Shown here piece by piece: positions 8,518 to 57,687 of a stretch of DNA of 64,000 nt. The stretch comes from Bdellovibrionales bacterium. Its GTDB lineage: Bacteria; Bdellovibrionota; Bdellovibrionia; Bdellovibrionales; JAUICD01. The translations under genes were made by a program, and so were the position numbers. The first letter of the stretch is position 1; every line of letters begins with the position of its first letter. The notes beneath the pieces are model-generated. The model did no database searches. It was not told the origin of the DNA and was given only the letters and a program-made list of their open reading frames with translations. Where the stretch lies: assembly GCA_965203875.1 (NCBI GenBank), contig OZ241914.1, positions 1,521,589-1,585,588 of the forward strand, in the 5' to 3' direction.

Positions 8518-8617
8518 GCACTCAAGTTCTAAAATTAAAGAATCTTAAACAAGTCTGTTTGTAGTACATCTCGAATTTTGCTTTGGTTTTTTTGATATGA
8601 ATTTTATATTTCATCCA

Positions 8618-8734
8618 AGTCTCAAATTTGGGACTGGAGTGAACTTTTGTATTGGTAATTATTAAAAGTTAATAAACATTATAGTAGTTTAGCTGATTAT
8701 AGACTTAAATCACTAAAGTCTCATTTTTGAGACT
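8618..8734. promoter_or_regulatory. two 18-bp palindromes AGTCTCA-N4-TG(A/G)GACT
   Basis: agtctcaaatttgggact at 8618-8635 and agtctcatttttgagact at 8717-8734. Confidence 0.45.
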
Positions 8735-8831
8735 AATTTGATATAACTTTAAGAGTAAAGTTTTCATTTGACTTACAGTATCCCAGGTAGTTTGGTTGCA
8801 GGTTAAAGATTGATAATTTTTAGGGGATAGA

Positions 8832-9788
8832 ATGAGAACACCTGGTAACAAAGGTAATACAAATAATCAAAGAGACAATAAATCAAGGCACCCTATTCAT
8901 GATGCTGCTTTTAAGTTATTAGTAGAGCATGTTGATGTAATAGTTTCCTTAATAAAAGCTGCTGGTGAACAAAGCTGTAATAAGAAGGCTCTGCCATTAT
9001 TAAACATGCTAGATTTAAATACTGTAAAAATAATTAAGAGCAATTTTATCTCTAAGTCCATGAAAGAATTTAAGTGTGATGTTGTAATATCGGTTAAGTT
9101 ATTTGGCTTTGACGAATGGTTTAAAATAGTGCTTATATTTGAACATAAGTCATATAAGGATTCTAAGGTATATATTCAGAGTTTAGGTTATTTATATGGA
9201 TTTATTTCATCATCAGAGCACGATGGAAAATCTGTTCCTATTCCTTTTATAGTTACTAATGCTCGTTCTAAGAGTAAATTTCCAAACAGCTTTAGAGAAG
9301 CAGAGTTTGCTATGTTGGCCAAATATTTTATCAAGCATACACCCAACAAAATAAAATGATCTTACTAAATTCTTTTATAGTCTACCTTGAGAGCTGCACA
9401 ACTTTTTTAATAAATGCACCCTAGCTTCGCTAAGACCTTCGGTCTAACCGCTTCGCTAATTAAATATTAGATAACAGAAGAGACTTGTTATAATTGCAAA
9501 TATGCTGATGAAGAGTTATTATTGAAGTTGGAGGCTGAGGTGCTTAAGGAAGAGGACAGATTTATGAAATATGGATTTACGGCTCTTAACAAAAAAGGCA
9601 TACAGCAAGGGCTGAAGCAAGGTTTAGAGCAAGGTAAGCAGGAAGGTTTAGAGCAGGGTAAGTATGAAATAGTCGTAAAAATGTTAGCTAACGGCTTAAA
9701 CACCAAAACCATCTCTAGCTACACCGGTCTTTCAGAAAAAGATATTAAGAACATCAAATATAAGCCAAAGAATGGCTCATCTTCTTAA
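8832..9788 (+). pseudogene. Rpn/YhgA-like PD-(D/E)XK nuclease gene, split, with the middle replaced by repeat DNA
   Basis: N-terminal piece 8832-9359 (HDAAFK, CDVV...FEHKSY); C-terminal piece 9522-9788 (QGLEQG repeats, helix-turn-helix-like tail YTGLS); repeat DNA about 9312-9476 between them. Confidence 0.8.
9351..9476 (+). repeat. structured intergenic repeat, copy A
   Basis: tagtctaccttga...tttttaataaatgcaccctagcttc...agacc-ttc-ggtct...gcta. Confidence 0.8.
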
Positions 9789-9835
9789 AAGAAGATAACT
9801 GCATTCCATTACTTCTCGAGCTACTCTACACCGAC

Positions 9836-10103
9836 AAACAATAAGACCCTAAGCAAATATTTTTGTAGTACACCTTGAATGTTGGATAACATTTTATCAA
9901 ACTCTAACTTAGCTTCACTTTCGACCTTTGGCCTAACCACTACGCTAGTGTACATTTATTAAAAACTTTAGAGACTTTCAAAAAGTCTGTTGGAATATAC
10001 CTTGAACGTTGGGCAACGTTTTTAATAAGCACACATCAGCTTCACTTTGACCTACGGTCGGGCCGTTTTGCTATGTATGCTTATTAAAAACGAAGACCTT
10101 TAA
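9836..10103 (+). repeat. structured intergenic repeat, tandem copies B and C
   Basis: caccttgaatgttgg / taccttgaacgttgg heads about 127 bp apart; copy C stem 10019-10036 pairs with 10073-10090. Confidence 0.85.
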
Positions 10104-10190
10104 GGACCTTAGTCTATGCACTTACAAGTGCCAGAGTAACTGATTGATAATACATAGCTAAATAATATAAATTATAACCCAGGTATTTAT

Positions 10191-11813
10191 ATGAAAAGTG
10201 TAGCTATAGACATCGGTTCTTACTCTATAAAAATAGCAGATTTAGAATCTAACAAAACAGGAAACTATCAGATAAACGAATGCCTAGAGATAACTACACC
10301 CACAGATGAAAGCGACCGTCTATCATTCCTGGAACAAACTTTAAAAAAAATTGCACACCATTACCAAAAACAGTCAGTAAGATACGTACTACAAGTAAAT
10401 CAAAAATACATAGGCACACAATACTGCTCCTTTCCAATAAAAGAAAAACACAAGATAATAAAGAGCTTACCTTTCCAACTAGCAGAAGACGTTCCATTTA
10501 ACTCGAACAATATGGTATACGAATCTAAGTTTCTGGCTTCAGTAGGAAACAACACAGAACTACTAGCTTTAATAGTAAATAAACAACATGTAGCAGAAAT
10601 TTTGGAACTAGTAAGAGATTGTGGAATAGAACCAGATATTATAACCGCACCATCGATTGCACTATCTAACTTTATTTCCGACTGGTCAGGATCTATACCT
10701 AGCTCCAAACGCCCTTTACTTACTCAAAGCAACTACCAAAGCGATGAACAAATAACACCATCCAAAGTAATAATGGATATTGGGCATAAAACAACAAACA
10801 TAATGATCCACATAAACGGCTCAATCGTACAAAGTAACACAATATTTTTTGGGGGATCAGATATTATAGAAGACCTGGCCAAAGCATACCAGCTTCCAAA
10901 CAACGAAGCCACACAACATCTGATCGAAAAAGGCTTTGTACTAGCATCAGAAGAAAATGCATCAGAAAACCAAGTATTTTTCTCAAACACTATCAAAAAA
11001 AGTGTAAAGGCAGGACTAATAAAGCCAGCAGACCAAATCTTTCTATCGGCCAAAAGCAAAACACAACTATCTTTAGAAAGTATCCACATTGCAGGCGGTG
11101 TAGCAGGGCTTACAAATTTAACAGACTATCTAACAAAAGAATTCAATATAGAAACATACGTGTTACACAGTGGTAAACTAGAATCCAAATTCAATAATGC
11201 AGTTGCGATGGCCATCGAAGGATTTAGAACTCCTAAAAATCCTCCAGTTAATTTCATAAAAGATGAGCTGTCACCAAAAAGCCAATTTTTCTACAATCTA
11301 TGGAAAGCATACGGTCATATGATAAGAGTAGGAGCAGTTTGTGTATTATTACTCTTTATCCATGGCATTGTAAAAGGACACTTTGCTGACAAACTTTCAA
11401 ACGAAGGCTACGAAAAATTGCAAAAACTGGCAAAATCCTCAGATTTTAAAATCAAAAAACCATCCGCCAGTAAAATAAATAGGTTTGTAAAAAACAAATC
11501 TAAAGAAATAAAATCTTTAGACGAATTATCCAAGCTTACTAAAAGCAAATCAGCCATAGAAATACTAGAAGAAATAAGCGTGGGAATACCTAGCAAAAGA
11601 AAAATTAAGCTAGATGTAAAAAAACTAACAATCCAAAACAACAAAGTAAATATACAAGGTTTAGTAGATAATCAAAATCAACAACAGTCTCTTTTGATAG
11701 CTCTAAGAAATATGTCCAGTAACAAAAAGGTTGTCACTACTCAACCACAATTTACAACAAACGATCCTACTAAAATTGCATTTGCATACACATTTAGTGT
11801 AGGAAATAAGTAG
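10191..11813 (+). CDS. gspL: type II secretion GspL / PilM-like actin-fold protein
   Basis: IDIGSYSIK, MDIGHKTT, IAGG actin-like motifs, one TM helix and a periplasmic domain. Confidence 0.75.
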   Translation: MKSVAIDIGSYSIKIADLESNKTGNYQINECLEITTPTDESDRLSFLEQTLKKIAHHYQKQSVRYVLQVNQKYIGTQYCSFPIKEKHKIIKSLPFQLAEDVPFNSNNMVYESKFLASVGNNTELLALIVNKQHVAEILELVRDCGIEPDIITAPSIALSNFISDWSGSIPSSKRPLLTQSNYQSDEQITPSKVIMDIGHKTTNIMIHINGSIVQSNTIFFGGSDIIEDLAKAYQLPNNEATQHLIEKGFVLASEENASENQVFFSNTIKKSVKAGLIKPADQIFLSAKSKTQLSLESIHIAGGVAGLTNLTDYLTKEFNIETYVLHSGKLESKFNNAVAMAIEGFRTPKNPPVNFIKDELSPKSQFFYNLWKAYGHMIRVGAVCVLLLFIHGIVKGHFADKLSNEGYEKLQKLAKSSDFKIKKPSASKINRFVKNKSKEIKSLDELSKLTKSKSAIEILEEISVGIPSKRKIKLDVKKLTIQNNKVNIQGLVDNQNQQQSLLIALRNMSSNKKVVTTQPQFTTNDPTKIAFAYTFSVGNK

Positions 11814-11815
11814 CC

Positions 11816-12532
11816 ATGCTAGAAAATTTAAAAAATACAATCCTAGCAAGATTAAATACTTTTCAAGATTCTGCCATCTATATAGCACTAGAAGAAAAGT
11901 ACGATAGATTACAACCATCACAACAGTTAATGATAAAACTAGGATCGACCCTGTTAATATTTGCAAGCGTTTTTTTAATAATTCAATCGTTATTTTCAAA
12001 CGCTTCAACTAAAATTGAAGATTTTAACAATAGCAGAGCATTGATTAGCAAATTAAGTAACTTGAAAACTAGCATGAACAGTAGCCCATTAGTACCAACA
12101 ACACCTGGAAGATCCGAACTTATACAAAGAATCAACTCAGCAGTTCAAAGTTCAAATGTAGCGTCTCAACAAATAATAAACATAAGTAATGCCAATATAA
12201 AAAAAGATATTAAAACTTCATCCTTGGATACTTCTGGCATTGAAGTAAAACTAAAAACATTAAACTTAACTCAAATCGCAGATGTAGCATCTAAAATACA
12301 AGATATTTCTAGTTCCATAAAAATTGTCTCTGTTGACATATCAAATAGTACCGAAGAACCTAGATATTTTGATGTTAATTACAAGATAGCTGCCTTTTAT
12401 CCAAAAGTTGCAAAAATAGAACCAGATGATGATAAAGAAGATAAAAAATCTAAAAGACGCAAGAAAAGAAGAGTTAAAAATAGAGACAAAGATAAAGACG
12501 AAGAAGAAGGTAAAGAAGAAGACAAAGAATGA
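11816..12532 (+). CDS. gspM: type II secretion GspM-like protein
   Basis: One N-terminal TM, periplasmic domain, position after gspL; charged low-complexity tail. Confidence 0.6.
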   Translation: MLENLKNTILARLNTFQDSAIYIALEEKYDRLQPSQQLMIKLGSTLLIFASVFLIIQSLFSNASTKIEDFNNSRALISKLSNLKTSMNSSPLVPTTPGRSELIQRINSAVQSSNVASQQIINISNANIKKDIKTSSLDTSGIEVKLKTLNLTQIADVASKIQDISSSIKIVSVDISNSTEEPRYFDVNYKIAAFYPKVAKIEPDDDKEDKKSKRRKKRRVKNRDKDKDEEEGKEEDKE

Positions 12533-13476
12533 AGTTTATCAAACCTATTATAAACATAATAAAATTTCATAAAATGAAAATAATTTTTTCTTTTGGATTA
12601 TTTATTTTATTTTTTATAGTTTTTTTTCCAAGAGAAGATCTATCAGCATTTATCTCTGGTAAAATAAGCAAATTGACCAATAATAGTATTATAATAGGCT
12701 TTGACAATATGAATTTTGATATTATTCCTTCACCTAGAATAAATTTTCAAAAGGTCAAGCTATCAACATCGGTTATTCAAGGTATAGAAGCAGAAAGACT
12801 AACCCTTTCCCCGTCTATTGTTTCACTACTTACTTTAAAGCCAGGTGCTTCTGTTTTCCTTAACGGTTTTTTTGACGGAAGTGCTATGCTAGGTTTTACA
12901 TCTAGCTTACCAACAGATGATGGCCAAGACATTTCACTAAATATTAATATCAATTCTATTAACATAGGTGAATTGACCAGCCTATTAAAACTACCAGCTA
13001 ATATTTCTGGCAAAATGAGTCTAAATGCAAAAGGCAATACCATAACAACAATGGATAGACAGCCAACATTCAACATAGGCTTGAAATTAAACAGTACACA
13101 ATTAACCAGCATATCAATACCAACACAAATAGGGCCGCTTGCTATTCCAAATATAACTTTGAATGCACTTTCATCACAAATAAGGCTAGATAAAGGCAAA
13201 CTACAAATTTCGTCTTTAAAAATAGATAATCGTAGCAGCATATACGGAAATGTAACCGGTACAGTTGATTTAGAATTTAAAAGTGGAAGAAGAGGTATAA
13301 GCCCACAGATGGGTGTGTACGACCTGAGATTCAATCTTGGTTTAACACCTGCCCTAGAACAAGAGATGAAAATTTACTTGGACGCTCTTGGGCTTTCAAA
13401 ATATAAAAAGGGCGGTATATATCAATTTATAGCAAACGGTACACCTTACGGTATACCTAGCATACGAGGTATGTAA
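12529..13476 (+). CDS. gspN: type II secretion GspN-like protein
   Basis: N-terminal TM ending FP, beta-rich body, C-terminal G-T-x-x-x-P; follows gspLM. Confidence 0.65.
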   Translation: MKFIKPIINIIKFHKMKIIFSFGLFILFFIVFFPREDLSAFISGKISKLTNNSIIIGFDNMNFDIIPSPRINFQKVKLSTSVIQGIEAERLTLSPSIVSLLTLKPGASVFLNGFFDGSAMLGFTSSLPTDDGQDISLNININSINIGELTSLLKLPANISGKMSLNAKGNTITTMDRQPTFNIGLKLNSTQLTSISIPTQIGPLAIPNITLNALSSQIRLDKGKLQISSLKIDNRSSIYGNVTGTVDLEFKSGRRGISPQMGVYDLRFNLGLTPALEQEMKIYLDALGLSKYKKGGIYQFIANGTPYGIPSIRGM

Positions 13477-14192
13477 GCGGTAAACAACACAGAAATTTCA
13501 TACAACAAAATCATAGGGATCATAAAAAACAGCATACTTACTACATCAGGTGGAGTTGCAAATGAAGATATACAAGCAAGTATGATGTATGCATAGCCTC
13601 GATTTTTCTTTAAAAACTTTTTATCTACAATACCCAATATACTTAAACCTGTTAATACCAGAGGTAGCTCAAAAGCTAAGCCAAATATTAAAACAGTGGT
13701 GGTAAAAAATGATAGGTAATGGTTTATAGATATCATAGGTATATCTTTTCCATCACCAAAGTTTAATAAAAATTTAAATGCAATTGGATATATCACAAAA
13801 TATACGAATAAAATCCCTAAAAGAAATAAGAAACTACCAAAACCAACAAAAAATATAGTAATTTGTCTTTCGTTTTTATATAAGCCTGGAGAAATAAAAT
13901 TCCAAACTTGATATATCCAAAACGGGCAAGTGAAAATAACACCCCCAAGTAAAGCTATTTTCATATGAGCAAAAAATTTATCTGTTACACCAGTGTATAT
14001 CAAGCCTCTTGTGTCGGTGCCCAAGTAAGCAGATATAGGACTCCTGACAATGGAAAATAATAAATCATCAAAGAGCCAGCAAACCAAAGTTCCTACAGAA
14101 ATTATTAGGATTGATCTTATAAGTACTGATCTAAGCTCTCCAAGATGAGATAACATTCCATCATTTTTGTCTGTATTAGTATCGCTATTCAT
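13446..14192 (-). CDS. tatC: twin-arginine translocase TatC
   Basis: HLGELR, FISPGLY, FELP, TPPD. Confidence 0.95.
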   Translation of the reverse strand: MNSDTNTDKNDGMLSHLGELRSVLIRSILIISVGTLVCWLFDDLLFSIVRSPISAYLGTDTRGLIYTGVTDKFFAHMKIALLGGVIFTCPFWIYQVWNFISPGLYKNERQITIFFVGFGSFLFLLGILFVYFVIYPIAFKFLLNFGDGKDIPMISINHYLSFFTTTVLIFGLAFELPLVLTGLSILGIVDKKFLKKNRGYAYIILACISSFATPPDVVSMLFFMIPMILLYEISVLFTAYIPRMLGIP

Positions 14193-14196
14193 ATCA

Positions 14197-14406
14197 TTAA
14201 GCCTTATCTATTTTATCTATTTGGTTTGTAGGTTTTTCTTTTTTAAAACTGAAGTCTAAATTTTTAGATACTTCAGTTATTACGCATCTAAGATCACTAA
14301 TAAGCCTAGCAATTATTTTGGAGGTACTTAAAAGATCTTTAGGGCCAAGCAATAATAGTGCTATTATAAAAATAGTCAGTAACTCTATGGTGCCAATACC
14401 AAGCAT
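14197..14406 (-). CDS. tatB: TatB/TatA family subunit
   Basis: GIG-x-x-ELL...LLGPKDL directly upstream of tatC. Confidence 0.7.
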   Translation of the reverse strand: MLGIGTIELLTIFIIALLLLGPKDLLSTSKIIARLISDLRCVITEVSKNLDFSFKKEKPTNQIDKIDKA

Positions 14407-14437
14407 AGTATGTATTTACATACTTAAGATAAGTTTT

Positions 14438-15031
14438 TCAAGAAAATGATCTACCTTCTGGTATATTTAAGCCTTCTTCAATTAGCTTATTCTTTGCTAT
14501 GTTGGATCCTGTCATAAGATATTTTTCATACAGCCTTAAAACATCTTCATCCGACTGTAAATTCACTTTCAGGCTTATGTAAGTCAGCAGCTCTACAAAA
14601 TTCATAAATTTTTCTGCAAATTCCTTATATAGTTCAGAAAAAGTTGGCTCATTTACGCTGTTAGCAAGCGTGCCATATGCACTCTCTCCAACATTAGTGT
14701 AATAATCTATATCAATTAGTTTTCTATTGAGTGAATCACCAAAAAAACCGCTAACATACAAAGTAGTGTCAGCTAATTTTTTTAGTATTTTAATATGTTC
14801 ATTAGACGATGAAGTTGCCTGTAACAACAATTCTGCTAGAGTATTAGATTGTGTATTCTGATCGATTTCCTCAACAGATGGTACAGAGCTTAAAAAGCTA
14901 TCCATCAAATCAACTAGATAGTAACTGGCAGTTTCTGATGGTTGAAATCTTATCTTGGTTTTTCCCTCATTGATCATCTCGAAGAAAAAAACCTTTGATG
15001 AGGTATAGATGTCGTCATGTGAGAAAGTCAT
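14438..15031 (-). CDS. conserved-looking hypothetical protein
   Basis: GGAGG SD; LADTTLYVSGFFGDSL...DIDYY; function unknown. Confidence 0.7.
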   Translation of the reverse strand: MTFSHDDIYTSSKVFFFEMINEGKTKIRFQPSETASYYLVDLMDSFLSSVPSVEEIDQNTQSNTLAELLLQATSSSNEHIKILKKLADTTLYVSGFFGDSLNRKLIDIDYYTNVGESAYGTLANSVNEPTFSELYKEFAEKFMNFVELLTYISLKVNLQSDEDVLRLYEKYLMTGSNIAKNKLIEEGLNIPEGRSFS

Positions 15032-15115
15032 ATACCTCCTCTATTTAGAAATGCTAGCATAAATGAAAAAATCATAAATAGAATATTTTGGCACTTAGAC
15101 CAAAGTCCAAGCTTA

Positions 15116-19527: not shown

Positions 19528-19528
19528 A

Positions 19529-21560: not shown

Positions 21561-22490
21561 ATGAGCATAAACAATGATCGAGGTTTTTTTGTTGTATTGA
21601 TGGTGGCTTTGGTATCATTTGCACTTTGGGCTACGATGTCTACTATGCACATATATTCTGTGAATAAGATGGAAGCTCATGCTAAGGCAAAGGAAGCTAA
21701 TGAGATGTATAATACTCTGTCTGATTTTGCAGCAGAGGCTCAGGCTGGTTATTATAGGAGTGTTATAGAAAATCAGGGTGAAGAAGGTGATGAATGCCCT
21801 GGTGACTACCAGAACTGTACTTTGGATGAGGGGGGGGGCACTAAGCCTAATCTTTGTCTTAAGGAAAAAAGCTGTAACACTTGTTTAGATGCTAGTAATG
21901 GTAAGAATGTGGTGGAGTATTGTGGTAATTTTTTTGGATTTAGTGGTAAGGATGATCTTGGAGACTGTTCTGATCCTAAAGTTTTATGTGTTGCTGCCAG
22001 TATAGATGTTGCGGATAGGAAGAATCCTCCTTCATCATCTGATCTTAAAGATTGTGATACATGTTTTGTTCAGCCGTTTAAAATTTTTGTAGATACACCA
22101 GGAGTAACTAATACTACCGAAACTACTGAAGGTCCTGACTGTTCATCTATCTGTATGGGATCATCTCATCCGTATACTTCCAATAGGAATCTCTGCGTTA
22201 CAGGTCATCAGGAATCTGATGGTTGCACTTGTTACAAAGGAACATCGTATAATCCATCTAGTCCAGATACATGTGGTGCAAGTTGTACGAATGGGCAATA
22301 TTCAGAAGGTGAAAAATGCCCAGATAACTACCCATGTGTTAGAGAAAATAATAGCTATTCCTGTGGATGTAAGCTGTCTTCTCAATGTGAGAAAAGCCAG
22401 GTATGCTGTTTAAACGGACGTTGTGTCAAGCCTGATAATGCTAATAATTTACCAGGACAATTAGAACCTGCTGAGTGTTATATGAACTAA
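21561..22490 (+). CDS. Cys-rich exported protein with prepilin-like N terminus
   Basis: NDRG|FFVVLM hydrophobic leader; many Cys; G9 tract at 21830-21838. Confidence 0.7.
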   Translation: MSINNDRGFFVVLMVALVSFALWATMSTMHIYSVNKMEAHAKAKEANEMYNTLSDFAAEAQAGYYRSVIENQGEEGDECPGDYQNCTLDEGGGTKPNLCLKEKSCNTCLDASNGKNVVEYCGNFFGFSGKDDLGDCSDPKVLCVAASIDVADRKNPPSSSDLKDCDTCFVQPFKIFVDTPGVTNTTETTEGPDCSSICMGSSHPYTSNRNLCVTGHQESDGCTCYKGTSYNPSSPDTCGASCTNGQYSEGEKCPDNYPCVRENNSYSCGCKLSSQCEKSQVCCLNGRCVKPDNANNLPGQLEPAECYMN

Positions 22491-22503: not shown

Positions 22504-22691
22504 AAAATTGAAAACCTTTAGATAATCTTTCGGAGTATACCTTGAACGTTGCTTGGGATTTTTTGATAAGTACACACTAGCTTCACTTTGACCTACGGTC
22601 GGGCCATTACGCTACGTGTACTTATCAAAAACTTTAGAGCCTTAAAATTGAAAACCTTTGGCTGTTGGTTAACATTTTTAATAAGCATACA
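22504..22691 (+). repeat. structured intergenic repeat, copy D plus a partial copy
   Basis: Perfect 16-bp inverted repeat tttttgataagtacac (22560-22575) / gtgtacttatcaaaaa (22616-22631); inner gacc-tac-ggtc. Confidence 0.85.
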
Positions 22692-22970: not shown

Positions 22971-24644
22971 ATGAGTAAAATAAAGTATGTTTTTTGTATT
23001 GCAGCTATTGGTTCTACAGTTTTCTTATATCAAAATTGTGCGGATCAATCATTTACAGTAACCCAGTCTTCTGTAGATTATTCAACAAGTATGTCACCTA
23101 GTTGTATAGGAGATAATAATTTAATAATAGTTAGTATCGATCAAGACATAGAAGGTGAAATATCATTTGAGTGTAAAGACAGTAATACAGAATTTGTAAA
23201 TTGTAATAATTATGATTTAGATGGCGGTGTTGTAAAGGCATCTGACGGCAATCTTGTTTTTAGCCAGTTAGATAATGATTCTTACTCGCTTACAGTACAA
23301 ATGTTAATTACACCTGACAATGGTGATACAGTCAGAGATACGTTTGAAATAAATTTTGAACGTTGCGAATCTGAAACAAACACTCAAAGTACAGCCACTA
23401 CAGAAACTACATCTACCACTGAAACCACAACAGATACAACTGAATGTATAACCTGCTTAAGTCGTATAACAGATTCTACTTGTCAAGTATGCTCTAACCC
23501 TAATAGCTGTACTGAAACTCCTATTGCTAAAACTATAAGTTGTGGTTCTGAAGGTATGTCGGCCTATCCATTGTCTACCGAACCAACCTGCCCTACTGGT
23601 AATAGAATATTATGTAATAAAACCTGTTATAGAGGAGGATCTGCTACTTGCACAGCTGATCCTTCAACTTGCACTACATGTCCTAATGGTGAATGTGGTC
23701 AGCCTCAAACAGGTCAAACTTGCTCTAGCCGAATAACCGATTCTGCTTGTCAAGTATGCTCTAATCCTAACAGTTGTAGCGAATCTCCTGTTGCTAAAGC
23801 TATAACTTGTGGTTCTGGAGATATGTCGGCTTACCCACTATCTACTAGACCTGCTTGCCCTACAGGAGAACTTACTTTATGTGGTACGACTTGTTATAGT
23901 GGAGGATCTATTACTTGCACAGCCAATTCTGCAACCTGCACCACATGCCCTAATGGTGAATGTGGTCAGCCTCAAACAGGTCAAACTTGCTCTAGCCGAA
24001 TAACCGATTCTGCTTGTCAAGTATGCTCTAATCCTAACAGTTGTAGCGAATCTCCTGTTGCTAAAGCTATAACTTGTGGTTCTGGAGATATGTCGGCTTA
24101 CCCACTATCTACTAGACCTGCTTGCCCTACAGGAGAACTTACTTTATGTGGTACGACTTGTTATAGTGGAGGATCTATTACTTGCACAGCCAATTCTGCA
24201 ACCTGCACCACATGCCCTAATGGTGAATGTGGCCAGCCTCAAACAGGACAAACTTGCTTAAGTCAAATAACCGATTCTACTTGTCAAGTATGCTCTAACC
24301 CTAACAGTTGCAGCGAATCACCTTCTAATAGAACCATAACTTGTGGTTCTGAGGATATGGCAGCTTATCCGTTATCTTCAGAACCTGTTTGTGTAACTGA
24401 TAGTAGAACATCATGTGGAATAACTTGTTATCAGGGGCGTTCTTTTAAGAAATATACAAGATGTAGCTGTGAAGATTGTGATCTGACAAGTCTATGTTGG
24501 TTTGAAACTTATAATGCTAACTGTGGATATGAATGTCCAACTGGAATTTCTAATAACCCACATAATGGCTTCAGCTGTCCCGCACGTGGAGTTACTCCAC
24601 CAAATTGTTATGATATTTTAGACAACTTAGCTCCTTGCAGATAA
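22971..24644 (+). CDS. Cys-rich repeat lipoprotein-like surface protein
   Basis: Leader ending FLYQNC, Thr/Glu linker, about 3.7 copies of an 89-aa 12-Cys unit. Confidence 0.8.
   Translation: MSKIKYVFCIAAIGSTVFLYQNCADQSFTVTQSSVDYSTSMSPSCIGDNNLIIVSIDQDIEGEISFECKDSNTEFVNCNNYDLDGGVVKASDGNLVFSQLDNDSYSLTVQMLITPDNGDTVRDTFEINFERCESETNTQSTATTETTSTTETTTDTTECITCLSRITDSTCQVCSNPNSCTETPIAKTISCGSEGMSAYPLSTEPTCPTGNRILCNKTCYRGGSATCTADPSTCTTCPNGECGQPQTGQTCSSRITDSACQVCSNPNSCSESPVAKAITCGSGDMSAYPLSTRPACPTGELTLCGTTCYSGGSITCTANSATCTTCPNGECGQPQTGQTCSSRITDSACQVCSNPNSCSESPVAKAITCGSGDMSAYPLSTRPACPTGELTLCGTTCYSGGSITCTANSATCTTCPNGECGQPQTGQTCLSQITDSTCQVCSNPNSCSESPSNRTITCGSEDMAAYPLSSEPVCVTDSRTSCGITCYQGRSFKKYTRCSCEDCDLTSLCWFETYNANCGYECPTGISNNPHNGFSCPARGVTPPNCYDILDNLAPCR
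23451..24432 (+). repeat. intragenic 267-bp tandem repeat
   Basis: Units start at 23451, 23718, 23985, 24252; units 2 and 3 are almost identical. Confidence 0.95.
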
Positions 24645-24657: not shown

Positions 24658-24797
24658 AAAACGAAGGGCTTTATGACAGTTCTTTTATAGTCTACCTTGA
24701 ACGTTGGTAAACATTTTATCAAATAATAGCTATCTTCATTAAGACCTCCGGTCTAACCATTACGCTATCTATTATTTGATAAAATTGAAAACCTTTA
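24658..24797 (+). repeat. structured intergenic repeat, copy E
   Basis: Perfect 17-bp inverted repeat 24713-24729 / 24769-24785; inner agacc-tcc-ggtct. Confidence 0.85.
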
Positions 24798-24800: not shown

Positions 24801-26114
24801 TTATTTTTTCCTGGTGAAAATTCTTATGGGAATACCAGATAACTTCCACTTTTTCTTTATCTCTTTTACCAAAAACCTCCTATACCTCTTAAGTAAAGGC
24901 TTGCTGTTATTAGTAAAAGCAATAAAGGTAGGCGGTACTTGCTTAGTCTGAACCACATAATACAACTTAACCCTACCACCAAGTATTCCTTGCTTTTTAT
25001 CTAAACTCAAAAAGAAATCATTTAACTTAGAAGTAGAAACCTTATGATTTAACTTATCCCAAATAATCTCTACAGTTTTAAATAAGTTCTTTACACCACT
25101 ACCATTCTTAGCACTAATAAATACCAACGGTATATCTTCAAAAAAAGCAAATACATCCTTTGCCTTCTGTCTAAAAGTTTTTCTAAAATCTTCAAACTTA
25201 TCTTTACCAATATCACTCTTATTGACTATTAAAATCACAGGTTTATGCAAACTCAACACATTGCTCACCAACCTGGCTTCTTGATGCCCAATACCTTCCA
25301 TGCAATCTAACAACAGCAAAATAATATCAGCACGCTCAATAGATTTTTCTGATTGAATACTTGATAATTTCTCAAGACCAGTTTTTCTCTTAGCCTTCCT
25401 TCTTATACCCGCAGTGTCCACCAATTTATATTTTTTATTTTCAAACTCAACAATGCTATCCACACTATCAGTCGTAGTACCAGGAATATCAGTTACAATC
25501 ATACGATCATAACCATTTATAAAATTACAAAGTGTACTTTTCCCCGCATTAGGCTTACCTATTATTGTTAATGTTTTCATCTTTTCGTCATCTGACAATG
25601 ATTCTGAAACATTATTTTGAGTACAAACTTTTGTTGCTATCCAATCCAGAATATCTGTAATACCCACTTTATTTTCAAAAGAAGCACTTAGCCAAACATC
25701 ATTTAGTTCATAAAAATCTGTTTTAATTGATTCAGATTCTTTGTAAGAGTCTACCTTGTTAATGACAAAAAAAATTTTACTAGATAATTCTTTAGCAAGT
25801 CTTACAACGTATTTATCTTCTGGATGAATGCCAAATTTACCGTCTACGATAACTATCAGAGCATCTACTTCTGTTAATAAATTTAGTATCTTTCTTTCAA
25901 TCTCTTGGCTAAATAGATCATCTGTTTTACTTAAACCACCTGTATCAATAATTTCAAATTGCTTTCCCAGCCAGGTGGCGTTGGATATTTTGATATCTCT
26001 AGTTGTACCTGGTTGATTTTTTACAAGTGCTCTTTTTGAATCTATAATTTTATTAAATAATGTAGATTTTCCTACATTAGGTCTTCCGATTATAGCAACC
26101 TTTGTTAACATCAC
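24801..26114 (-). CDS. der: ribosome biogenesis GTPase Der
   Basis: Two G domains GRPNVGKS and GKPNAGKS, DTGG/DTAG, KH-like tail. Confidence 0.96.
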   Translation of the reverse strand: MMLTKVAIIGRPNVGKSTLFNKIIDSKRALVKNQPGTTRDIKISNATWLGKQFEIIDTGGLSKTDDLFSQEIERKILNLLTEVDALIVIVDGKFGIHPEDKYVVRLAKELSSKIFFVINKVDSYKESESIKTDFYELNDVWLSASFENKVGITDILDWIATKVCTQNNVSESLSDDEKMKTLTIIGKPNAGKSTLCNFINGYDRMIVTDIPGTTTDSVDSIVEFENKKYKLVDTAGIRRKAKRKTGLEKLSSIQSEKSIERADIILLLLDCMEGIGHQEARLVSNVLSLHKPVILIVNKSDIGKDKFEDFRKTFRQKAKDVFAFFEDIPLVFISAKNGSGVKNLFKTVEIIWDKLNHKVSTSKLNDFFLSLDKKQGILGGRVKLYYVVQTKQVPPTFIAFTNNSKPLLKRYRRFLVKEIKKKWKLSGIPIRIFTRKK

Positions 26115-52011: not shown

Positions 52012-52247
52012 ATAGAATCCCCCAGGCACTTTTCGGAATATTTATATACAAAGCTTTAGAGCAAGAAAATAATACAGACTATAAAAAGTACCTATTGTAT
52101 TATCTACATTAATGCTAACAAAAAATGTCAAACATATAATGGAAGCGTAGCAATTACATAGAGAAAATAGCCTGATTTATACAAAGGTCACTTTTAGTAG
52201 TTTTATGGATTATAGTAAAGCCATATTGAATAAATTTTAAATTAGAC

Positions 52248-52276
52248 TTGACTAAAACCAATATGTCTTGTAGAGT
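52248..52276 (+). promoter_or_regulatory. sigma70-like promoter
   Basis: TTGACT-17 bp-TAGAGT upstream of the gene at 52363. Confidence 0.5.
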
Positions 52277-52362
52277 CCATGGAACATCTTACGGCATCTA
52301 GAATGCTTGAATAGGAATGGAAACAATAATTAAGTTATAGCCATAGGGCGGGGGATTTAGAC

Positions 52363-53202
52363 ATGCGTTTTATCATATTTTCTGTAATTTTGTTTGCGAC
52401 TTCTCAGTCGTTTGCACAAAATGTGCAACTGTTAAGAGGCTTCAATGCAGCTGCTAAAGCTGTAAGTAGCAGTGCCAGTGTTACTGAGTCTGCTGCTGCA
52501 AGGTTTTTGATAAGCCAAGCTAGTGCTGCTAGAATAACAGGTGTCAGTTCAGCTGCATTAAGATCTGTTGATGGATTGGAAGCAGCTCTAAATAGAATAT
52601 TACAAAGTAACAATACTGACCTGAAGGCTAAGACTACTAACTTCTTAGAGGCGGTACAAGCTGCTACTTCTCAAATCGAAAATGGTAGGCCGGTTACCGA
52701 TGTGCTAAGAACATCTCTAAATACTGATGCTTTGTCTACTACAGCTCAAAAAGCTGCTGCTCAAGTTGAGGCTGCCGAAGCTGCTAGAGCAGATTCTGTA
52801 GCTCAAGAAAAGAGAACCATTATCAATCGAATAGATGATTTTACAAAGGCTGCACTCCAAAGATTTAGAGGTGCATCATCAGACACTATAGCTAAGATCA
52901 ATGAAGCGTCTAGTGAATTGAAAGCAGCTGCGGACAAGGGTGTTAAAATTCTGGGTGTCGGAGCAACAGAATGCATGGGTTCTTGGGATGCTGGTGCCAC
53001 ACCACAACTTAAAAGTTTTGTTAATATACTTTCTCACACCGACGATGCTTCAAACCAAAGAGAGGCTTTTGCTAACCTATCTAGTGGAGTGAAGGCAGAG
53101 CTTGGAGTTGAGAGTAGATCAGAGATTGCGGCTAGACTTAGTACTTTATCTGACCCAGCTAATTGCCAAGCACTTTCTCCTGCTGCCACTGCTGGCGGTT
53201 AA
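52363..53202 (+). CDS. secreted Ala-rich helical hypothetical protein
   Basis: Signal peptide MRFIIFSVILFATSQSFA; two Cys; G-rich SD. Confidence 0.8.
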   Translation: MRFIIFSVILFATSQSFAQNVQLLRGFNAAAKAVSSSASVTESAAARFLISQASAARITGVSSAALRSVDGLEAALNRILQSNNTDLKAKTTNFLEAVQAATSQIENGRPVTDVLRTSLNTDALSTTAQKAAAQVEAAEAARADSVAQEKRTIINRIDDFTKAALQRFRGASSDTIAKINEASSELKAAADKGVKILGVGATECMGSWDAGATPQLKSFVNILSHTDDASNQREAFANLSSGVKAELGVESRSEIAARLSTLSDPANCQALSPAATAGG

Positions 53203-53225
53203 TCACTGTAATTTAAAACGAACTT

Positions 53226-53264
53226 AAAAAGGGCGTAAACACAAGATTGTTTACGCTTTTTTTT
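53226..53264 (+). terminator. Rho-independent terminator
   Basis: gcgtaaaca-caagat-tgtttacgc followed by T8 and preceded by an A-run. Confidence 0.85.
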
Positions 53265-53332
53265 AACCCAGAACCAATACTTTCCACACAATAGCTTTAT
53301 TTGTTCAGGTAAAATTCCGATTGCCTGTTGTC

Positions 53333-56300
53333 ATGTTTAACAAAATTTTAGCCTTTATTTGTGTTGTAGCTTGTTGCATCCAAGCACGTTCCTCAGGAAT
53401 AGTTGCATTGAGCGATCTCTCAGCCAAGAAACCAAAAAACTATCATATAGAACGAACGATCATGGTCTCAAATGAAGATGGGGTTAAAGCAGTAGTAAAT
53501 AACGAAGGTATGAATTTGAAAATAGAATCTGAAGGTAAACAGTTGGAAGTTAAAATTGAAAAAGCTCAAAGAGCAGCCCTTGAACATTCCAGTCCAGAAT
53601 TTATAAGAAGATCTATGAGAAGATCGTTGGCTCAGGTAGGAGTAGCATCTGGAAAGTTAGGAGGATTTGTAGGAAAATATACAGGAAAAACATCTGGATA
53701 TCTGGGTAGTGCACCCCAAAAATTAGCAAGCTATGCAATCCTACACTACCCAATGGAAGCAATGGGGTTTTACATAGCCCTAACAGCAATGTCTGTTTGG
53801 GAATGTCTAGTCAATGTAAACATAGCACCTTCACAAGCACAAATTCCACTGAATTTAACTGTAGCCGAACACCCTACTGCATGCTCAGAGTTAGGAGCAT
53901 CTTTAACAGATCCAATAACTCACATATCATTTGCCCTATTTATACAAACCAACAAACACACATCTAGAGCAATGAACTTAATCAACCAAAAATATAGAGC
54001 TAAGTATAACAGAAACATCATACCAGCACACTCAATAAGATACCTTGGTCTTGCGGCAGGTAGTATTGTATCAACAATAGCTGGTGAATTTCTGATGGAT
54101 CGAAACATCAGATACGTTGCATCCAATTTTTTTAGACAAAAAAATCCAATTGAACAAAGAAGGTTTGATAGAGCCTTAGATAGTGCATACGAAACATGGT
54201 CACCATCAAATATGAGTGTATACGGCCACCACGTTGTATCTCTTCTTGCTTCAGCTGCTACAGCTTCTATAGCAACAAGCATGGGACTAAAAACTTTAAA
54301 GGCTGTTTGGAATACTAAACAAGCTGCAAAAGCAACAAAACTCGGTGGTGTTTTAATGCAAATCCAACCTGTTAATATTAACGCAGGGAAAGTTATCAGG
54401 TATGCAATACCGTCATTTCGATTGGCAGTTAAAGCATCTACTCGATCAACTACTATAGGGTTTGTTGCAGTGGAAGTTGCATCACTTTTACATTTTTTCT
54501 TTTGGGAACATACTGTCTATGGACCATTTTTTAGTAAGCTATTGATGCAAGAAGAAAGTAGTGCTGAAATGAAATATTATCAAACTAACATTGTCAAACA
54601 ATTAGCAACTTTGAGTTCCAAAAGGGATGGCAACCTTTATTTACCAGCCAGAACTCCAATACAAAACTTTATCTATGATTCTTTACATTCAAAAGAAAAT
54701 ATAAAAGTACAAACAAATTACCTTAAATCTGGAAACTTTGCGTGTATTAATCATGATCTTTCAGACACGAACAAATTGTCTGACTTAACATCTAAATTAA
54801 AAGAATTAGAAAACAAAGATATACCATCAAATGGTTATACATACACAAGAGAAGTCTGCCCTTCTTTAGTACAACTACCACTGTTATTAGATGAATCCTT
54901 TACACAAAATTTAAACACATATATTGACCTTAGTTCTGATAATAATATTTTAGATAACTTATTACAGCATCATGAAAAGCTGCTTGAATACTATTCAGCG
55001 ATCAGTTCAAGAGTACAAAGTACACTCGAATCTTGGAGATCATTTTTTGAACCCTACGAAGATATGTTTCTTACTGTCGAAAACTTCTATAGTAAGCTTA
55101 TAGAACACAAAGGGAAAAACTATTTTCCAAACGGTTTTGATTATTGGAAAAGTAAAGGTGTTATAGATTCTATTTTTTATAATATCAGAACGTTTGAAGA
55201 TGCAATTATGCAAAGTAGTAACCGACTGCATTGGGAAAATATGTTGGCAAAAATAGGGTTAGATGGAAAAGCAATAGTAAAACTATCTGATAATCAGCTA
55301 AGACCTATACACAGCATTCTATCCAACATGAAGACTTTATTTGGAAAACCCAATGCAGAAAGAAAAGCTGCTATAGATTTTTTAAACAATGGATTTAACC
55401 CTGTTCAACTTGGAAGATTTGAAAAATATGATTATCAAGTTAGAAATTATGCTATCGAAAAAGGTATTAAGTTTGAAGTATTACAACAACTACAAAGTAA
55501 CGAAATTCAAGAAATAATTGATTTCTTAGATGAAGTTGATGATCACAATGAGTTTGTTTATTTATATGCACTAAACACTGGGCAGAAACTTAGTAGCTTA
55601 CAAAGAAAAAATAAAGATGAACTGGTAGAAGAGCTAGGTGGCAAACAAAGTATCTTGGTTGCATCTATGTCAACAGAAGATAGTGACACAAACTTAGAAA
55701 TTGAACCTATGGTAGGAGAATCAATTCATTTTGAAAGCAAAGCTGGTGGGCTAGTTTCGCAAGAAGGTATATACTATAACAATATCCTAGAGAAAATATT
55801 AATTAAACTTACTTGCGGAAAATCCTTAAATGAATTGTCAAACCTTTTGGAAGAAAACAAAAATTCAATGATTAGAAGAGCATATGTTCTAGGGCCTCTA
55901 CAATTTGTATCACCTAGATTACTAGAAGTGAGAAATAGAAATATATGCTCCTACACCAAGCCAGGATATAGACACAACCACGTGCATAATGAGTTTATAG
56001 ACAACAATAAAAAATATGCCAACCTGTTAGATTATGCTCTTCAAAATATAAATGTTACTACAAAAGAATTTGTAGATAGCTGGTGGCCTAGAGTTTATGA
56101 AAGAAACGAAGCTGATTACTTAAGATATTTTGAAAAGAAAAAAGAAGCTTTGAAAGCTCATGTTGTAGAAGCTTTTTATGATGATACTTACGATAGATTT
56201 AGTAGCGGTATGCTAGGTTCAATGATGAATATAGGAAAAAATATGAACACAGATATAAATATAAAAAGATTGAGTTTTGCTAATGGAATAAAAAATCTAT

Positions 56301-56731
56301 CAGACGATTTTGTGGATTACTATTTAAGAGTACTGGCACTAATTATACCAAGAGACAATAAAGAATTCCTTGAAAATATGTACGTATATATTGATTCGAT
56401 TAGCAGGCTAGCTATTCATTCAGAAAATTATGAAGAAATAAGATCAGAATTCCAAGAATATGAACGAAGTAAAATAAGAGATAAAATTAATAATGACGGA
56501 TGGTCAAATTCATACATTGAAGAAATGAACCACACTGATCTACATAATCTTGTGGTTATAGAAATGCTACATGATATGAGTTTTTATTTCAAAAATGAAT
56601 TATCTTTAGGTGATATTGAAGATGGAAATTACAGGGAATTAATTCAAATAGCAGACGCTATTATACAAAACATAGGACAAATTATACAACAGAAAAGTAT
56701 ATCATCTCAAATGATAAATTGGATCAATTAA
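53333..56731 (+). CDS. large secreted hypothetical protein with multiple hydrophobic helices in the N-terminal half
   Basis: Probable start MFNKILAFICVVACCIQA (ORF track start 53321); about 1130 aa. Confidence 0.8.
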   Translation: MFNKILAFICVVACCIQARSSGIVALSDLSAKKPKNYHIERTIMVSNEDGVKAVVNNEGMNLKIESEGKQLEVKIEKAQRAALEHSSPEFIRRSMRRSLAQVGVASGKLGGFVGKYTGKTSGYLGSAPQKLASYAILHYPMEAMGFYIALTAMSVWECLVNVNIAPSQAQIPLNLTVAEHPTACSELGASLTDPITHISFALFIQTNKHTSRAMNLINQKYRAKYNRNIIPAHSIRYLGLAAGSIVSTIAGEFLMDRNIRYVASNFFRQKNPIEQRRFDRALDSAYETWSPSNMSVYGHHVVSLLASAATASIATSMGLKTLKAVWNTKQAAKATKLGGVLMQIQPVNINAGKVIRYAIPSFRLAVKASTRSTTIGFVAVEVASLLHFFFWEHTVYGPFFSKLLMQEESSAEMKYYQTNIVKQLATLSSKRDGNLYLPARTPIQNFIYDSLHSKENIKVQTNYLKSGNFACINHDLSDTNKLSDLTSKLKELENKDIPSNGYTYTREVCPSLVQLPLLLDESFTQNLNTYIDLSSDNNILDNLLQHHEKLLEYYSAISSRVQSTLESWRSFFEPYEDMFLTVENFYSKLIEHKGKNYFPNGFDYWKSKGVIDSIFYNIRTFEDAIMQSSNRLHWENMLAKIGLDGKAIVKLSDNQLRPIHSILSNMKTLFGKPNAERKAAIDFLNNGFNPVQLGRFEKYDYQVRNYAIEKGIKFEVLQQLQSNEIQEIIDFLDEVDDHNEFVYLYALNTGQKLSSLQRKNKDELVEELGGKQSILVASMSTEDSDTNLEIEPMVGESIHFESKAGGLVSQEGIYYNNILEKILIKLTCGKSLNELSNLLEENKNSMIRRAYVLGPLQFVSPRLLEVRNRNICSYTKPGYRHNHVHNEFIDNNKKYANLLDYALQNINVTTKEFVDSWWPRVYERNEADYLRYFEKKKEALKAHVVEAFYDDTYDRFSSGMLGSMMNIGKNMNTDINIKRLSFANGIKNLSDDFVDYYLRVLALIIPRDNKEFLENMYVYIDSISRLAIHSENYEEIRSEFQEYERSKIRDKINNDGWSNSYIEEMNHTDLHNLVVIEMLHDMSFYFKNELSLGDIEDGNYRELIQIADAIIQNIGQIIQQKSISSQMINWIN

Positions 56732-56743
56732 TTGGAGGTACAC

Positions 56744-57448
56744 ATGTATAATATATCAAGAATCTATTTATTAATATTGGTATTTATTTTGTTTTCTAGC
56801 AGTATTGTTCATGCTCAACGTCGTAGCGGAAGAGCCGGAAGATATAGACCAGCTACCTCCGCTCCAATGATTAAGTCTTTAAAACAATTAAATAGACAAC
56901 AAAATTACTTAAATAGATACAAGTCAAAACAAACTCAGATTAGACAATCAAAATATTCTGTATATGAATCTTTAATCAATAATACTAGAACCAGAACAAC
57001 TAATAGAGCTAGAAGAATTGTTAATGAATTTAAGAGTAAATTTGGATTTAGAAAAATGGACCCTAAGCTTCAAGCTGCTTTAGTAAAAACGCTCTCTGTA
57101 AATAGAGAAGCATTTGATACAATGCAAGCATTAAAAGATAACTCTTCTGCTATTTCAACAAGAAATCGGCAAATGACACTAGGAGAACATGCTTTGAGAA
57201 AAAAAATTATAGAAGCTATCGCTTTAAGTGGACAATACAGAGTAAGTACTTTTTTGAAAGAGGCAGCAGGTACATTTGGTACAGTTGACGCAAAGATTGT
57301 AGGATTGCAATCCAGGGTTCTTGCTGAAGCAATAAATAGAATGCAAGTTGTATCACCACAAACAAGGCACTTTTATAACGTATTAAATGAAGCCGCAATA
57401 AGAAATGGCATTGGGAAAAAAGTTGGCAATAGAAGACAATGTACATAA
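56744..57448 (+). CDS. secreted, highly basic hypothetical protein
   Basis: GGAGG SD before ATG 56744; signal peptide ending VHA; Arg/Lys rich. Confidence 0.75.
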   Translation: MYNISRIYLLILVFILFSSSIVHAQRRSGRAGRYRPATSAPMIKSLKQLNRQQNYLNRYKSKQTQIRQSKYSVYESLINNTRTRTTNRARRIVNEFKSKFGFRKMDPKLQAALVKTLSVNREAFDTMQALKDNSSAISTRNRQMTLGEHALRKKIIEAIALSGQYRVSTFLKEAAGTFGTVDAKIVGLQSRVLAEAINRMQVVSPQTRHFYNVLNEAAIRNGIGKKVGNRRQCT

Positions 57449-57453
57449 AACCA

Positions 57454-57687
57454 ACCTACGGCCGGTCAGTGTCGCTATATATGCTTATTAAAAACGAAGG
57501 GTCTTAAGAAAATTTGTTCATAGTCTACCTTGAACGTTGGTTAACATTTTTAAAAGTACACATAGCTTCACTTTGGCCTCCGGCCTTGCCGTTACGCTAT
57601 GTATACTTATTAAAAATTGAAGACCTTAAGAAAATCTGTTTGTAGTCCACCTTGAGAGCTGGTAAACATTTTTAATAAATGCACATC
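57454..57687 (+). repeat. structured intergenic repeat cluster (right half, full copy, left half)
   Basis: Heads tagtctaccttgaacgttgg and tagtccaccttgagagctgg about 122 bp apart; inner ggcc-tcc-ggcc. Confidence 0.85.

Follow-up and report, generated by a model that had tools for sequence, protein, structure and literature searches.

An apparently genus-specific family of structured intergenic repeats forms mosaic arrays in the reduced genome of a Bdellovibrionales bacterium

In a 64,000-nt stretch of the genome of a Bdellovibrionales bacterium (contig OZ241914.1; hereafter the window), repeats of about 125 nt lie behind accessory genes, which raises the question whether they are mobile elements, recombination sites or structured RNAs. 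A preliminary description had reported clusters of copies in a single orientation, each close behind a plus-strand gene. Searches by nhmmer, covariance model (CM) and repeat search recovered these copies at or near the reported positions, all in one orientation. Besides five to six full units, the window contains several truncated copies and a single degenerate trace. With E-values down to 1e-28 (nhmmer) in the window and 223 matches genome-wide, this repeat family is not due to chance.

The units are given here on the minus strand. The trace at 8531-8580 is weak and consists of a junction-box-like stretch, a linker and a decayed head (repeat family D7, 67-73% identity to other copies); it had no nhmmer match at E<=1e-3. 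A gene for an Rpn/YhgA protein (Transposase_31) is split into an N-terminal part (8832-9359, plus strand; Pfam PF04754, E 3.4e-13) and a C-terminal part (9522-9788, plus strand), a four-residue-repeat or RpnS-like region aligning with the C-termini of intact paralogues. Between both halves lies a full unit with non-complementary, chimeric arms (9363-9487, CM R1 85.5 bits), and an arm-like fragment, comprising the head end and one arm, is found inside the N-terminal ORF (9314-9341, repeat family D8). A tandem pair is formed by a full unit with non-complementary arms (9851-9978, nhmmer E 4e-24, CM R2 93 bits) and one with well-paired arms (9978-10102, CM R1 114.6 bits). Behind the accessory gene 21561-22490 we found a full unit (22518-22644, CM R1 101.2 bits) and a truncated one identified by sequence reading (22645-22691, repeat family D8), which has a second junction box, the head end and one arm only. 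A distance of 3 nt separates the junction-box end of the full unit at 24673-24797 (CM R1 118.1 bits) from the stop codon of der, a GTPase gene on the minus strand (24801-26114). No nhmmer match occurred between 24797 and 57454, in agreement with the reported lack of copies in the 25-45 kb housekeeping block. The last cluster comprises a half unit that retains the junction box, a single arm and half the central domain (57454-57506, nhmmer model positions 73-126), a full unit (57506-57628, CM R1 118.6 bits) and a half unit with head and one arm (57629-57685, nhmmer model positions 2-58). All six window clusters indeed begin close behind a plus-strand gene, with gaps of 6-63 nt. A companion hairpin repeat of a second family adjoins the last array (57705-57790) and has 13 BLAST matches of at least 30 nt in the genome; the 12 listed among them were all located inside or within about 61 nt of main-family arrays.

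Read on the window minus strand, a unit consists of a near-palindromic junction box starting with TAA, a hairpin of about 85 nt and a conserved tail. The outer arms of the hairpin tolerate any sequence if pairing is kept, and the conserved, purine-rich central domain contains two small covarying helices. What had been described as an internal loop is in fact partly paired, by a covarying TAGC/GCTA helix and a covarying 2-bp helix. In two species, compensatory changes have preserved the long imperfect hairpin. In CM-fitted alignments of related sequences, on which the covariation counts rest, 93.8% of the cells in this genome were paired compared to 77.8% in shuffles and 28-45% in slid controls, and 24 of 26 pairs had changed on both sides. 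Of the 132 anchored units, 122 had at least 13 outer pairs. Independently, 20 copies of the sister species with unrelated arms, aligned to model R2, were 93.2% paired and had changed on both sides in 21 of 26 pairs. The compensatory stems first reported (units C, D and E) pair as claimed, but the arms of units 9363-9487 and 9851-9978 are not complementary and fold no better than shuffles (z = -0.03 and 0.59, respectively); the former has 10 outer pairs instead of the usual 19-23. In four window units the minus strand gave z values of -4.1 to -5.05 and the plus strand -3.3 to -3.8: 9978-10102 (-5.05 versus -3.26), 22518-22644 (-4.84), 57506-57628 (-4.77) and 24673-24797 (-4.11).

One strand is favoured for folding. 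In 116 of 143 units, the strand opposite to the one given in the preliminary description was the more stable when folded as RNA. In the orientation of that description, mismatches were far more often A.C/C.A than G.T/T.G (120 versus 29) and C.T/T.C than G.A/A.G (321 versus 19). One strand obtained CM scores of 95-138 bits, the other no more than 39. This strong asymmetry supports the proposal of a folded single strand, but the better-folding strand carrying the wobble pairs is the window minus strand and not the one described. Because G.T pairs stabilise DNA hairpins as well, the asymmetry cannot separate RNA from DNA.

The organism is a relative of Bdellovibrio with a reduced, symbiont-like genome of 1.6 Mb, 1.5% of which is made up by the 223 nhmmer matches in 115 clusters. 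A diverged version with the same structure and unrelated arms was found only in the sister species (about 62 copies); searches of 3 further genomes in the family, 36 in the order and 150 in the phylum did not recover it. As far as these genomes indicate, the family is genus-specific. The family is not recently active: a copy at least 95% identical elsewhere exists for only 3 of 143 units. When each unit is compared with the rest of the genome, its closest match is at a median identity of 0.87.

Of the 115 clusters, 57 consist of 2-7 units in direct succession without an intervening ORF, and 58 are single units. Within a cluster the units share one orientation in 112 of 115 cases, and loci in both orientations occur across the genome. 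The arrays are mosaics of unlike units sharing the short junction box: adjacent units (n = 47 pairs) have a median identity of 0.70 compared to 0.69 for random pairs, only five pairs reach at least 0.95, and unlike units regularly stand head to tail with one box in common. By an approximate regex, 26 of 112 arrays also have a box behind their last head motif. Array orientation showed no bias with respect to the direction of replication, contrary to what would be expected from the known systems that transpose single-stranded DNA.

Gene positions were taken from the ORF-based gene calling of this analysis, which is not a validated annotation. On this basis, the box end faces the 3' end of a gene in 66 of 112 arrays, at a median distance of 4 nt, and the other end does so in 56. 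In 19 arrays the TAA of the box is itself the stop codon of the neighbouring gene. Placement beside variable genes, observed before in the window, applies genome-wide: of the 19 gaps that exceed their sister-species counterparts by more than 300 nt (lineage-specific insertions), 13 contained arrays, compared to 5 of 174 unchanged gaps. Seven of the 11 array sites that could be mapped were empty in the sister species and four were common to both, the latter carrying 2-7 units here and one there. Array sites can be common to both species while their content turns over. A gene module of about 7.5 kb is present in at least seven copies; in 6 of the 7 compared, an array lies no more than about 100 nt from its start, and in at least three an array is also located at its end. 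Genes of multi-copy families face the tail end of arrays more often (24 versus 6) than other genes do (25 versus 58; Fisher p = 3e-6), although these counts are inflated by segmental duplication of gene-plus-array blocks. Many arrays adjoin conserved single-copy genes. The association with variable regions could also be passive, tolerated insertions accumulating where constraint is low.

Which enzyme might act on such units? The search for mobility enzymes covered eight informative families. Seven of the eight had no match, and Resolvase was represented by a single serine recombinase gene. In the whole genome there was no match to the Y1 (IS200/IS605-like) RAYT family (PF01797, control matched in 6 of 14 reference genomes) and none to tyrosine recombinases (PF00589, control matched in 14 of 14). 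IS110, TnpB, rve, DDE_Tnp_1 and reverse transcriptase were likewise not found (besides PF01797, no match to PF01548, PF07282, PF00665, PF01609 and PF00078); for PF04986 neither the genome nor the control gave a match. Element insertion events were not observed directly, and the eight families gave no acting enzyme. Two of the readings first suggested fall with these searches: a REPIN is ruled out by the absence of a Y1/RAYT gene, and an integron-type cassette site by that of a tyrosine recombinase together with the arrangement of the units, most of which follow one another without an intervening gene.

The architecture comes closest to that of neisserial intergenic mosaic elements (NIME) and of REP/BIME arrays. 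As described in the cited passages of PMC1797815, NIME (dRS3 boxes flanking RS units) likewise consist of a short, partly palindromic box between units of 50-150 nt in long arrays. These are syntenic between genomes, variable in unit number and located beside variable genes, as are the arrays studied here, where a short conserved box also separates unlike units. The same passages propose NIME as recombination substrates or targets of a recombinase, and present mosaic intergenic arrays linked to variable genes as peculiar to Neisseria. NIME differ in belonging to another phylum and in having more than 100 RS families, compared to one homologous family with a covarying hairpin here; the sequences seem unrelated, the motif quoted in PMC1797815 differing from our box. 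Further differences are the strong strand asymmetry found here and the lack of a phage recombinase or IS110-type candidate. REP, BIME and REPIN share with our family the high copy number of extragenic palindromes at gene ends, composite arrays and a conserved hairpin. REP units, however, measure 20-40 nt, arms are variable and loops conserved in our family, BIME units alternate in orientation according to the part of PMC2817692 cited here, whereas 112 of our clusters have a single one, and REPIN have a RAYT.

We therefore favour, with moderate confidence, the reading that the repeats are a genus-specific, non-autonomous, structured intergenic family of NIME/REP-like type, which serves as a recombination junction. 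The substrate would be the unit in folded, single-stranded form, DNA being likelier than RNA, and new units would enter at or beside an existing junction box. Dispersed arrays would then be portable recombination junctions for the duplication, insertion and loss of accessory gene blocks. Against this reading speak the lack of recent activity, the unbiased array orientation relative to replication and the possibility of a passive link to variable regions.

Alternatively, the units might function as RNA, either as structured elements transcribed together with the 3' ends of genes (transcript stabilisers, processing sites or protein-binding sites) or as small RNAs in their own right, the spread being secondary. 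Conserved unpaired purines combined with variable covarying helices are typical of functional RNAs. Wobble pairs and G.A-type mismatches on one strand fit as well, as do the terminal loops of the favoured strand, which are purine-rich and in the alignment partly of GNRA type. Moreover, in 36 of the 66 cases in which the box end faces a gene 3' end, it lies no more than 5 nt from the stop codon of a gene transcribing the favoured strand. We nevertheless consider an RNA function unlikely: orientation towards neighbouring genes is barely biased (66 box ends, 56 other ends), and in operon-internal and accessory-gene contexts antisense transcription would be expected. Neither promoter-like nor terminator-like signals per unit exceeded those in shuffles, and the check for Rfam identity found no matching family (tRNA only for the window at gathering threshold, one chance-level snoRNA match only for a 7-unit array at E<=5). 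The strand asymmetry, as discussed above, is uninformative on this point.

An ordinary MITE, moved at TA/TAA-type targets by a transposase that was since lost or belongs to a family other than those covered, such as IS630, IS1, IS256, IS66 or Tn3, would leave the arrays and the link to variable genes as passive consequences. Like Correia elements, our units are non-autonomous, about 100-150 nt long, intergenic, present in hundreds of copies and occasionally gene-disrupting. Truncated and chimeric copies, insertions inside rpn genes and the different presence in the two species are consistent with this, the unit ends start with TAA and frequently overlap exactly with TAA stop codons, and the low recent activity would fit a lost transposase. 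However, no convincing terminal inverted repeats were found, apart from a weak gapped similarity of the two unit ends by eye, and neither a target duplication nor a parent IS was demonstrated for this reading, which had also been suggested at the outset; divergence between the species in the flanks of empty and occupied sites is too great to reveal target duplications or exact insertion boundaries. Seven of the eight enzyme families lack a match, both species have kept the element, also at sites common to them, while its copies turn over, and simple TA-targeting does not explain unlike units head to tail with one common box, an arrangement by which they differ from Correia-type MITEs. A MITE thus seems to us distinctly unlikely.

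Slightly less probable still is an attC-like cassette system, in which sites folded from one strand would be served by a non-tyrosine recombinase, e.g. one of the Rpn nucleases or the only serine recombinase found. In keeping with descriptions of attC sites and CALIN, the units are imperfect palindromes of similar size range, conserved in structure rather than sequence and folded preferentially from one strand, which is antisense to the accessory genes preceding the arrays. Arrays bound the multi-copy module and lineage-specific insertions, and some units show the order gene-site-gene-site behind accessory genes: at 21561-24797 gene and unit alternate twice, and the block is missing at the syntenic site of the sister species. 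Against this stand the lack of an integron integrase or any other tyrosine recombinase, the gene-free runs in half of the clusters with single units in the other half, the dispersal over 115 loci in both orientations, the many arrays beside conserved single-copy genes and the absence of any array within 20 kb of the serine recombinase gene.

The only candidate enzymes with any link to the element, and a weak one, are the expanded Rpn (PD-(D/E)XK) nucleases, whose natural substrates are given as unknown in the cited parts of PMC5350276 and PMC10400941. The genome has 16 Rpn loci, and an enrichment beside the repeats was borne out in so far as four of them are split by the element, each time behind the nuclease domain and ahead of the C-terminal, RpnS-like part; overall proximity to arrays was not significant (5 of 16 versus 14% background, p = 0.065). 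When aligned with an intact paralogue, the rpn halves in the window cover its residues 1-162 and 248-352, and an arm-like fragment is placed in the same way at the split rpn locus near genome position 1482k. The sister species, however, has its copies with a single Rpn gene, and in two genomes from another genus of the family 16 and 19 Rpn genes occur while copies of the element are lacking. That the arrays are recombination sites of an undescribed gene-cassette system, their folded units being cut and joined by Rpn or another non-tyrosine enzyme, is in our view the least probable of these proposals. If true, such a system would allow a reduced genome without transposases and Xer/integrase recombinases to duplicate and insert accessory modules, and the recurrent insertion into rpn genes would be the footprint of an enzyme acting on its own locus.

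A covarying hairpin with a favoured strand in an enzyme-poor genome makes the mechanism testable, and the list of candidate enzymes is shortened by the lack of the usual mobility enzymes covered here. The element also provides a defined case for studying whether structured DNA is a substrate of Rpn nucleases. The appearance of an unrelated NIME-like architecture in a reduced relative of Bdellovibrio suggests that such arrays are a recurrent solution for genome plasticity.

The repeat copies reported in the preliminary description were recovered at their places in the window by repeat search and sequence reading, all in a single orientation. When the whole genome, a single contig of 1,600,901 bp with 35% G+C, was searched iteratively with nhmmer, 223 matches were obtained (109 and 114 on the two strands), of which 143 span 110 or more of the 126 model positions. 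The 223 matches fall into 115 clusters, of which 58 consist of a single unit, 26 of two, 20 of three and 11 of 4-7 units; together they sum to 24 kb or 1.5% of the genome. Only 3 of the 115 clusters are of mixed orientation. The housekeeping block of the window had been described as free of copies, and indeed there was no nhmmer match between window positions 24797 and 57454. A search of Rfam returned no relevant family for the repeat, and the literature yielded no account of such repeats from Bdellovibrionota, which does not by itself show that none is in print. CRISPR was rejected because the units are contiguous and unique spacers are absent.

The outer stems pair as first described. The "internal loop" assigned to the hairpin is in part paired, since it holds an extra TAGC/GCTA helix and a 2-bp helix, both of which covary. 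Furthermore, stability, mismatch types and covariance model scores all favour the reverse complement of the strand originally chosen, i.e. the minus strand of the window. On this strand the unit consists of a box of about 12 nt beginning TAA, followed by the hairpin and a conserved tail. As RNA it is the more stable strand in 116 of 143 units (mean difference 4.85 kcal/mol). In the original orientation, the arms of 120 distinct hairpin cores contain 120 A.C/C.A mismatches versus 29 G.T/T.G, and 321 C.T/T.C versus 19 G.A/A.G; read from the opposite strand, these become wobble pairs and purine-purine mismatches. Units score 95-138 bits with a covariance model built from the favoured strand, and their opposite strand scores 39 bits or less. 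The asymmetry shrinks under DNA parameters. Since G.T pairs stabilise DNA hairpins too, it identifies the strand and not the molecule.

RNAalifold on a plain MAFFT alignment gave only 10 pairs, because indels are placed there without regard to structure; the final structure was thus derived from per-sequence folds followed by re-alignment with the covariance model. Counts of compensatory change bore the structure out: with 84 copies aligned to the model, 93.8% of the cells are paired, compared to 77.8% in shuffles and 28-45% in slid controls, and both sides have changed in 24 of 26 pairs, counts which lean towards structure because the alignment is fitted to it and the sequences are related. 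The stronger test is pairing in the sister species, the single other genome of the genus. There, 20 copies aligned to R2, the covariance model that includes copies of this species, have 93.2% of cells paired, with 21 of 26 pairs changed on both sides. Among the 132 units with a recognisable head, 122 form at least 13 outer pairs, most of them 19-23. The ten units falling short include chimeras with arms from different subfamilies. Two units of the window (9363-9487 and 9851-9978) have such mismatched arms and neither folds better than shuffled sequences. Behind the main hairpin a further small one (AACGTT, four bases, AACGTT) was considered but rejected, as one of its sides is invariant and, by eye, a sizeable minority of the aligned units have a mismatch in it. 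No consistent complementarity was detected between junction box and tail.

Neighbouring units are no more alike than random pairs (median identity 0.70 in 47 adjacent pairs versus 0.69), indicating that the arrays are mosaics and not local amplifications. Identity reaches 0.95 in only 5 of the 47 adjacent pairs, and units match their best counterpart elsewhere in the genome at a median identity of 0.87. A few local duplications are present. Truncated units are common at array ends, and by an approximate regular expression one variant of the box is over-represented among incomplete units (24 of 34 versus 39 of 140 for the other variants). A "dimer" with an identical internal deletion recurs at several loci. 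Variant units of about 160 nt, at genome positions 694061, 695992, 696173, 774460, 1232690 and 1232855, have part of the normal hairpin replaced by two additional G+C-rich mini-hairpins. In two further units (199270-199680 and 739700-740060) a different hairpin of about 55 nt takes the place of the entire arm-centre-arm hairpin and lies between a normal head and the junction box, so that the unit framework can evidently carry other hairpins.

A second, unrelated hairpin family of up to about 80 nt gave 13 BLAST matches. It looks like a companion module of the arrays, because all 12 of the 12 matches listed lie inside main-family arrays or within about 61 nt of them. These are located at window positions 57705-57790 and at genome positions 616688, 1180643, 533690, 1387525, 1232572, 27888, 955588, 405438, 130138, 551431 and 553081.

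With gene coordinates from the ORF-based gene calling done in this analysis, the box end was found to face the 3' end of a gene in 66 of the 112 single-orientation arrays, at a median distance of 4 nt and within 5 nt in 36 of them. In 19 arrays the TAA of the box doubles as the stop codon of the gene. The non-box end faces a gene 3' end in 56 arrays (median 32 nt). Gene 5' ends lie much farther away (medians 98 and 161 nt). There is no bias of the arrays with respect to the direction of replication (33 plus and 32 minus on one replichore, 27 and 20 on the other). A scan of a 7-unit array revealed 9 promoter-like sites (6.6 expected) and 1 terminator-like site (2.2 expected), neither signal being above shuffles; the units are thus neither canonical promoters nor terminators.

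For comparison with the sister species we used 400 kb of its contig C15, which is largely collinear with our genome at a median protein identity of 69% and contains 16 repeat copies, mostly single. Of 214 collinear adjacent ortholog pairs, 19 have an intergenic gap that in our genome exceeds its counterpart by more than 300 nt; 13 of these 19 hold arrays, compared to 5 of the 174 pairs with similar gaps. In the window, the gap between the genes for DksA and PilM comprises 2,220 nt versus 193 nt in the sister species, and the gap before der 3,310 nt versus 29 nt. Over the two gaps, the extra DNA consists of the rpn gene, the accessory genes and the repeats, in agreement with the earlier remark that the copies accompany accessory genes. 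Eleven arrays have both flanking genes mapping to neighbouring genes of the sister species; the corresponding intergenic space there holds a copy in 4 cases and none in 7. At one shared site the junction between flank and box is at the identical place in both species and the arms are completely different; at another the arrays are in opposite orientation. Array sites thus persist while their content turns over. In C15 of the sister species (181270-181450), a unit fills precisely the space from one gene's stop codon to the start codon of the gene that follows, antisense to both genes. The two genes overlap in our genome (493500-493560), giving a clean pair of filled and empty sites inside an operon. 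Logan contigs of four sequencing runs, looked at for gain or loss of units between strains, end at the repeats.

Searched with R1, the other covariance model of the unit, the family was found only in the sister species and gave no match in 39 other relatives from 13 families of the order. With R2 there were 62 matches in the sister species. The 3 remaining genomes of the family gave none, nor did a further 150 from the phylum, the latter searched with few candidates scored per genome and strict filters. The copies of the sister species retain the junction box, the central domain and the structure; their arms are unrelated to ours.

Among named homologues, those nearest to the der GTPase come from Bdellovibrio (45-50% identity), and closer relatives exist at 97% and 70% identity. 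Large paralogous families comprise ankyrin-repeat proteins, reprolysin-like peptidases, N6/N4 DNA methylases and Rpn nucleases, along with several others without a Pfam match. This profile is that of a host-associated bacterium with a reduced genome. The methylase family has ten members at 10 loci (e.g. 637443-638375) in a genome of 1.6 Mb. One accessory gene of the window (22971-24644), which is without a match in Pfam and is one of a family of 18 paralogues, contains a 267-nt (89-codon) repeat at 23450-24431, in four tandem copies that are 76-83% identical.

A module of about 7.5 kb is present in at least seven copies with 77-95% DNA identity (74632-82172 and near 112594, 325722, 405802, 533674, 942656 and 1387542). 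It contains three genes, encoding a small ORF, a protein of about 1000 amino acids of unknown family and a reprolysin-like metallopeptidase of about 1100 amino acids. In 6 of the 7 copies compared the start of its homology is no more than about 100 nt away from an array, and in at least 3 the homology ends at one. Genes of families with at least four members face the tail end of an array 24 times versus 6, and other genes 25 times versus 58 (Fisher p = 3e-6), counts which are not independent because some blocks of gene plus array are segmental duplicates.

A RAYT/IS200 TnpA (Y1) or a tyrosine recombinase had been considered as a neighbour of the copies, but neither family gave a match in this genome, and the search for mobility enzymes likewise gave no IS110, TnpB, rve, DDE_Tnp_1 or reverse transcriptase. 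As there is no match to the Phage_integrase family at all, with a control search positive in 14 of 14 reference genomes, the genome appears to lack a XerC/XerD-type gene. Y2 (PF04986) gave no match, but none in the control either. A single serine recombinase (1095273-1095683) lies near the skew-inferred terminus, far from any array. For each of REP/RAYT elements, integrons and classical MITEs, defining features were looked for and not found, and the family was therefore placed in none of these classes. The closest described architecture is the neisserial NIME array (PMC1797815).

Sixteen loci encode Rpn proteins (Transposase_31). Their suggested enrichment beside the copies was not significant in a proximity test (p = 0.065). 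A simple role of Rpn is also opposed by the sister species, which has one Rpn gene and about 62 copies, and by two genomes of another genus of the family with 16 and 19 Rpn genes and zero copies. Four Rpn loci (561149-561984, 862855-864063, 1481885-1483071 and window 8832-9788) are each split by one unit into an N- and a C-terminal ORF, and as far as detectable via paralogues or the sister-species sample no other array separates two halves of a single gene. The genes belong to different paralogue subfamilies and the insertions are in both orientations. Three of the four are broken at about residues 200-215, and the accompanying deletion is short or, in the window copy, about 100 codons. The insertions sever the nuclease part from the C-terminal ORF with four-residue repeats, which remains open. 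In published work, Rpn proteins are described as nonspecific endonucleases promoting RecA-independent recombination (PMC5350276) and as toxin-antitoxin defence genes whose C-terminal antitoxin is translated internally (PMC10400941). Selection against the toxin could explain the splits as well as an enzymatic link.

Taken as a whole, we give an even chance to the reading that the family is a structured non-autonomous repeat whose units, by inference, are handled as a folded single strand and accrete at the junction box, and which serves as a portable recombination junction for blocks of accessory genes.
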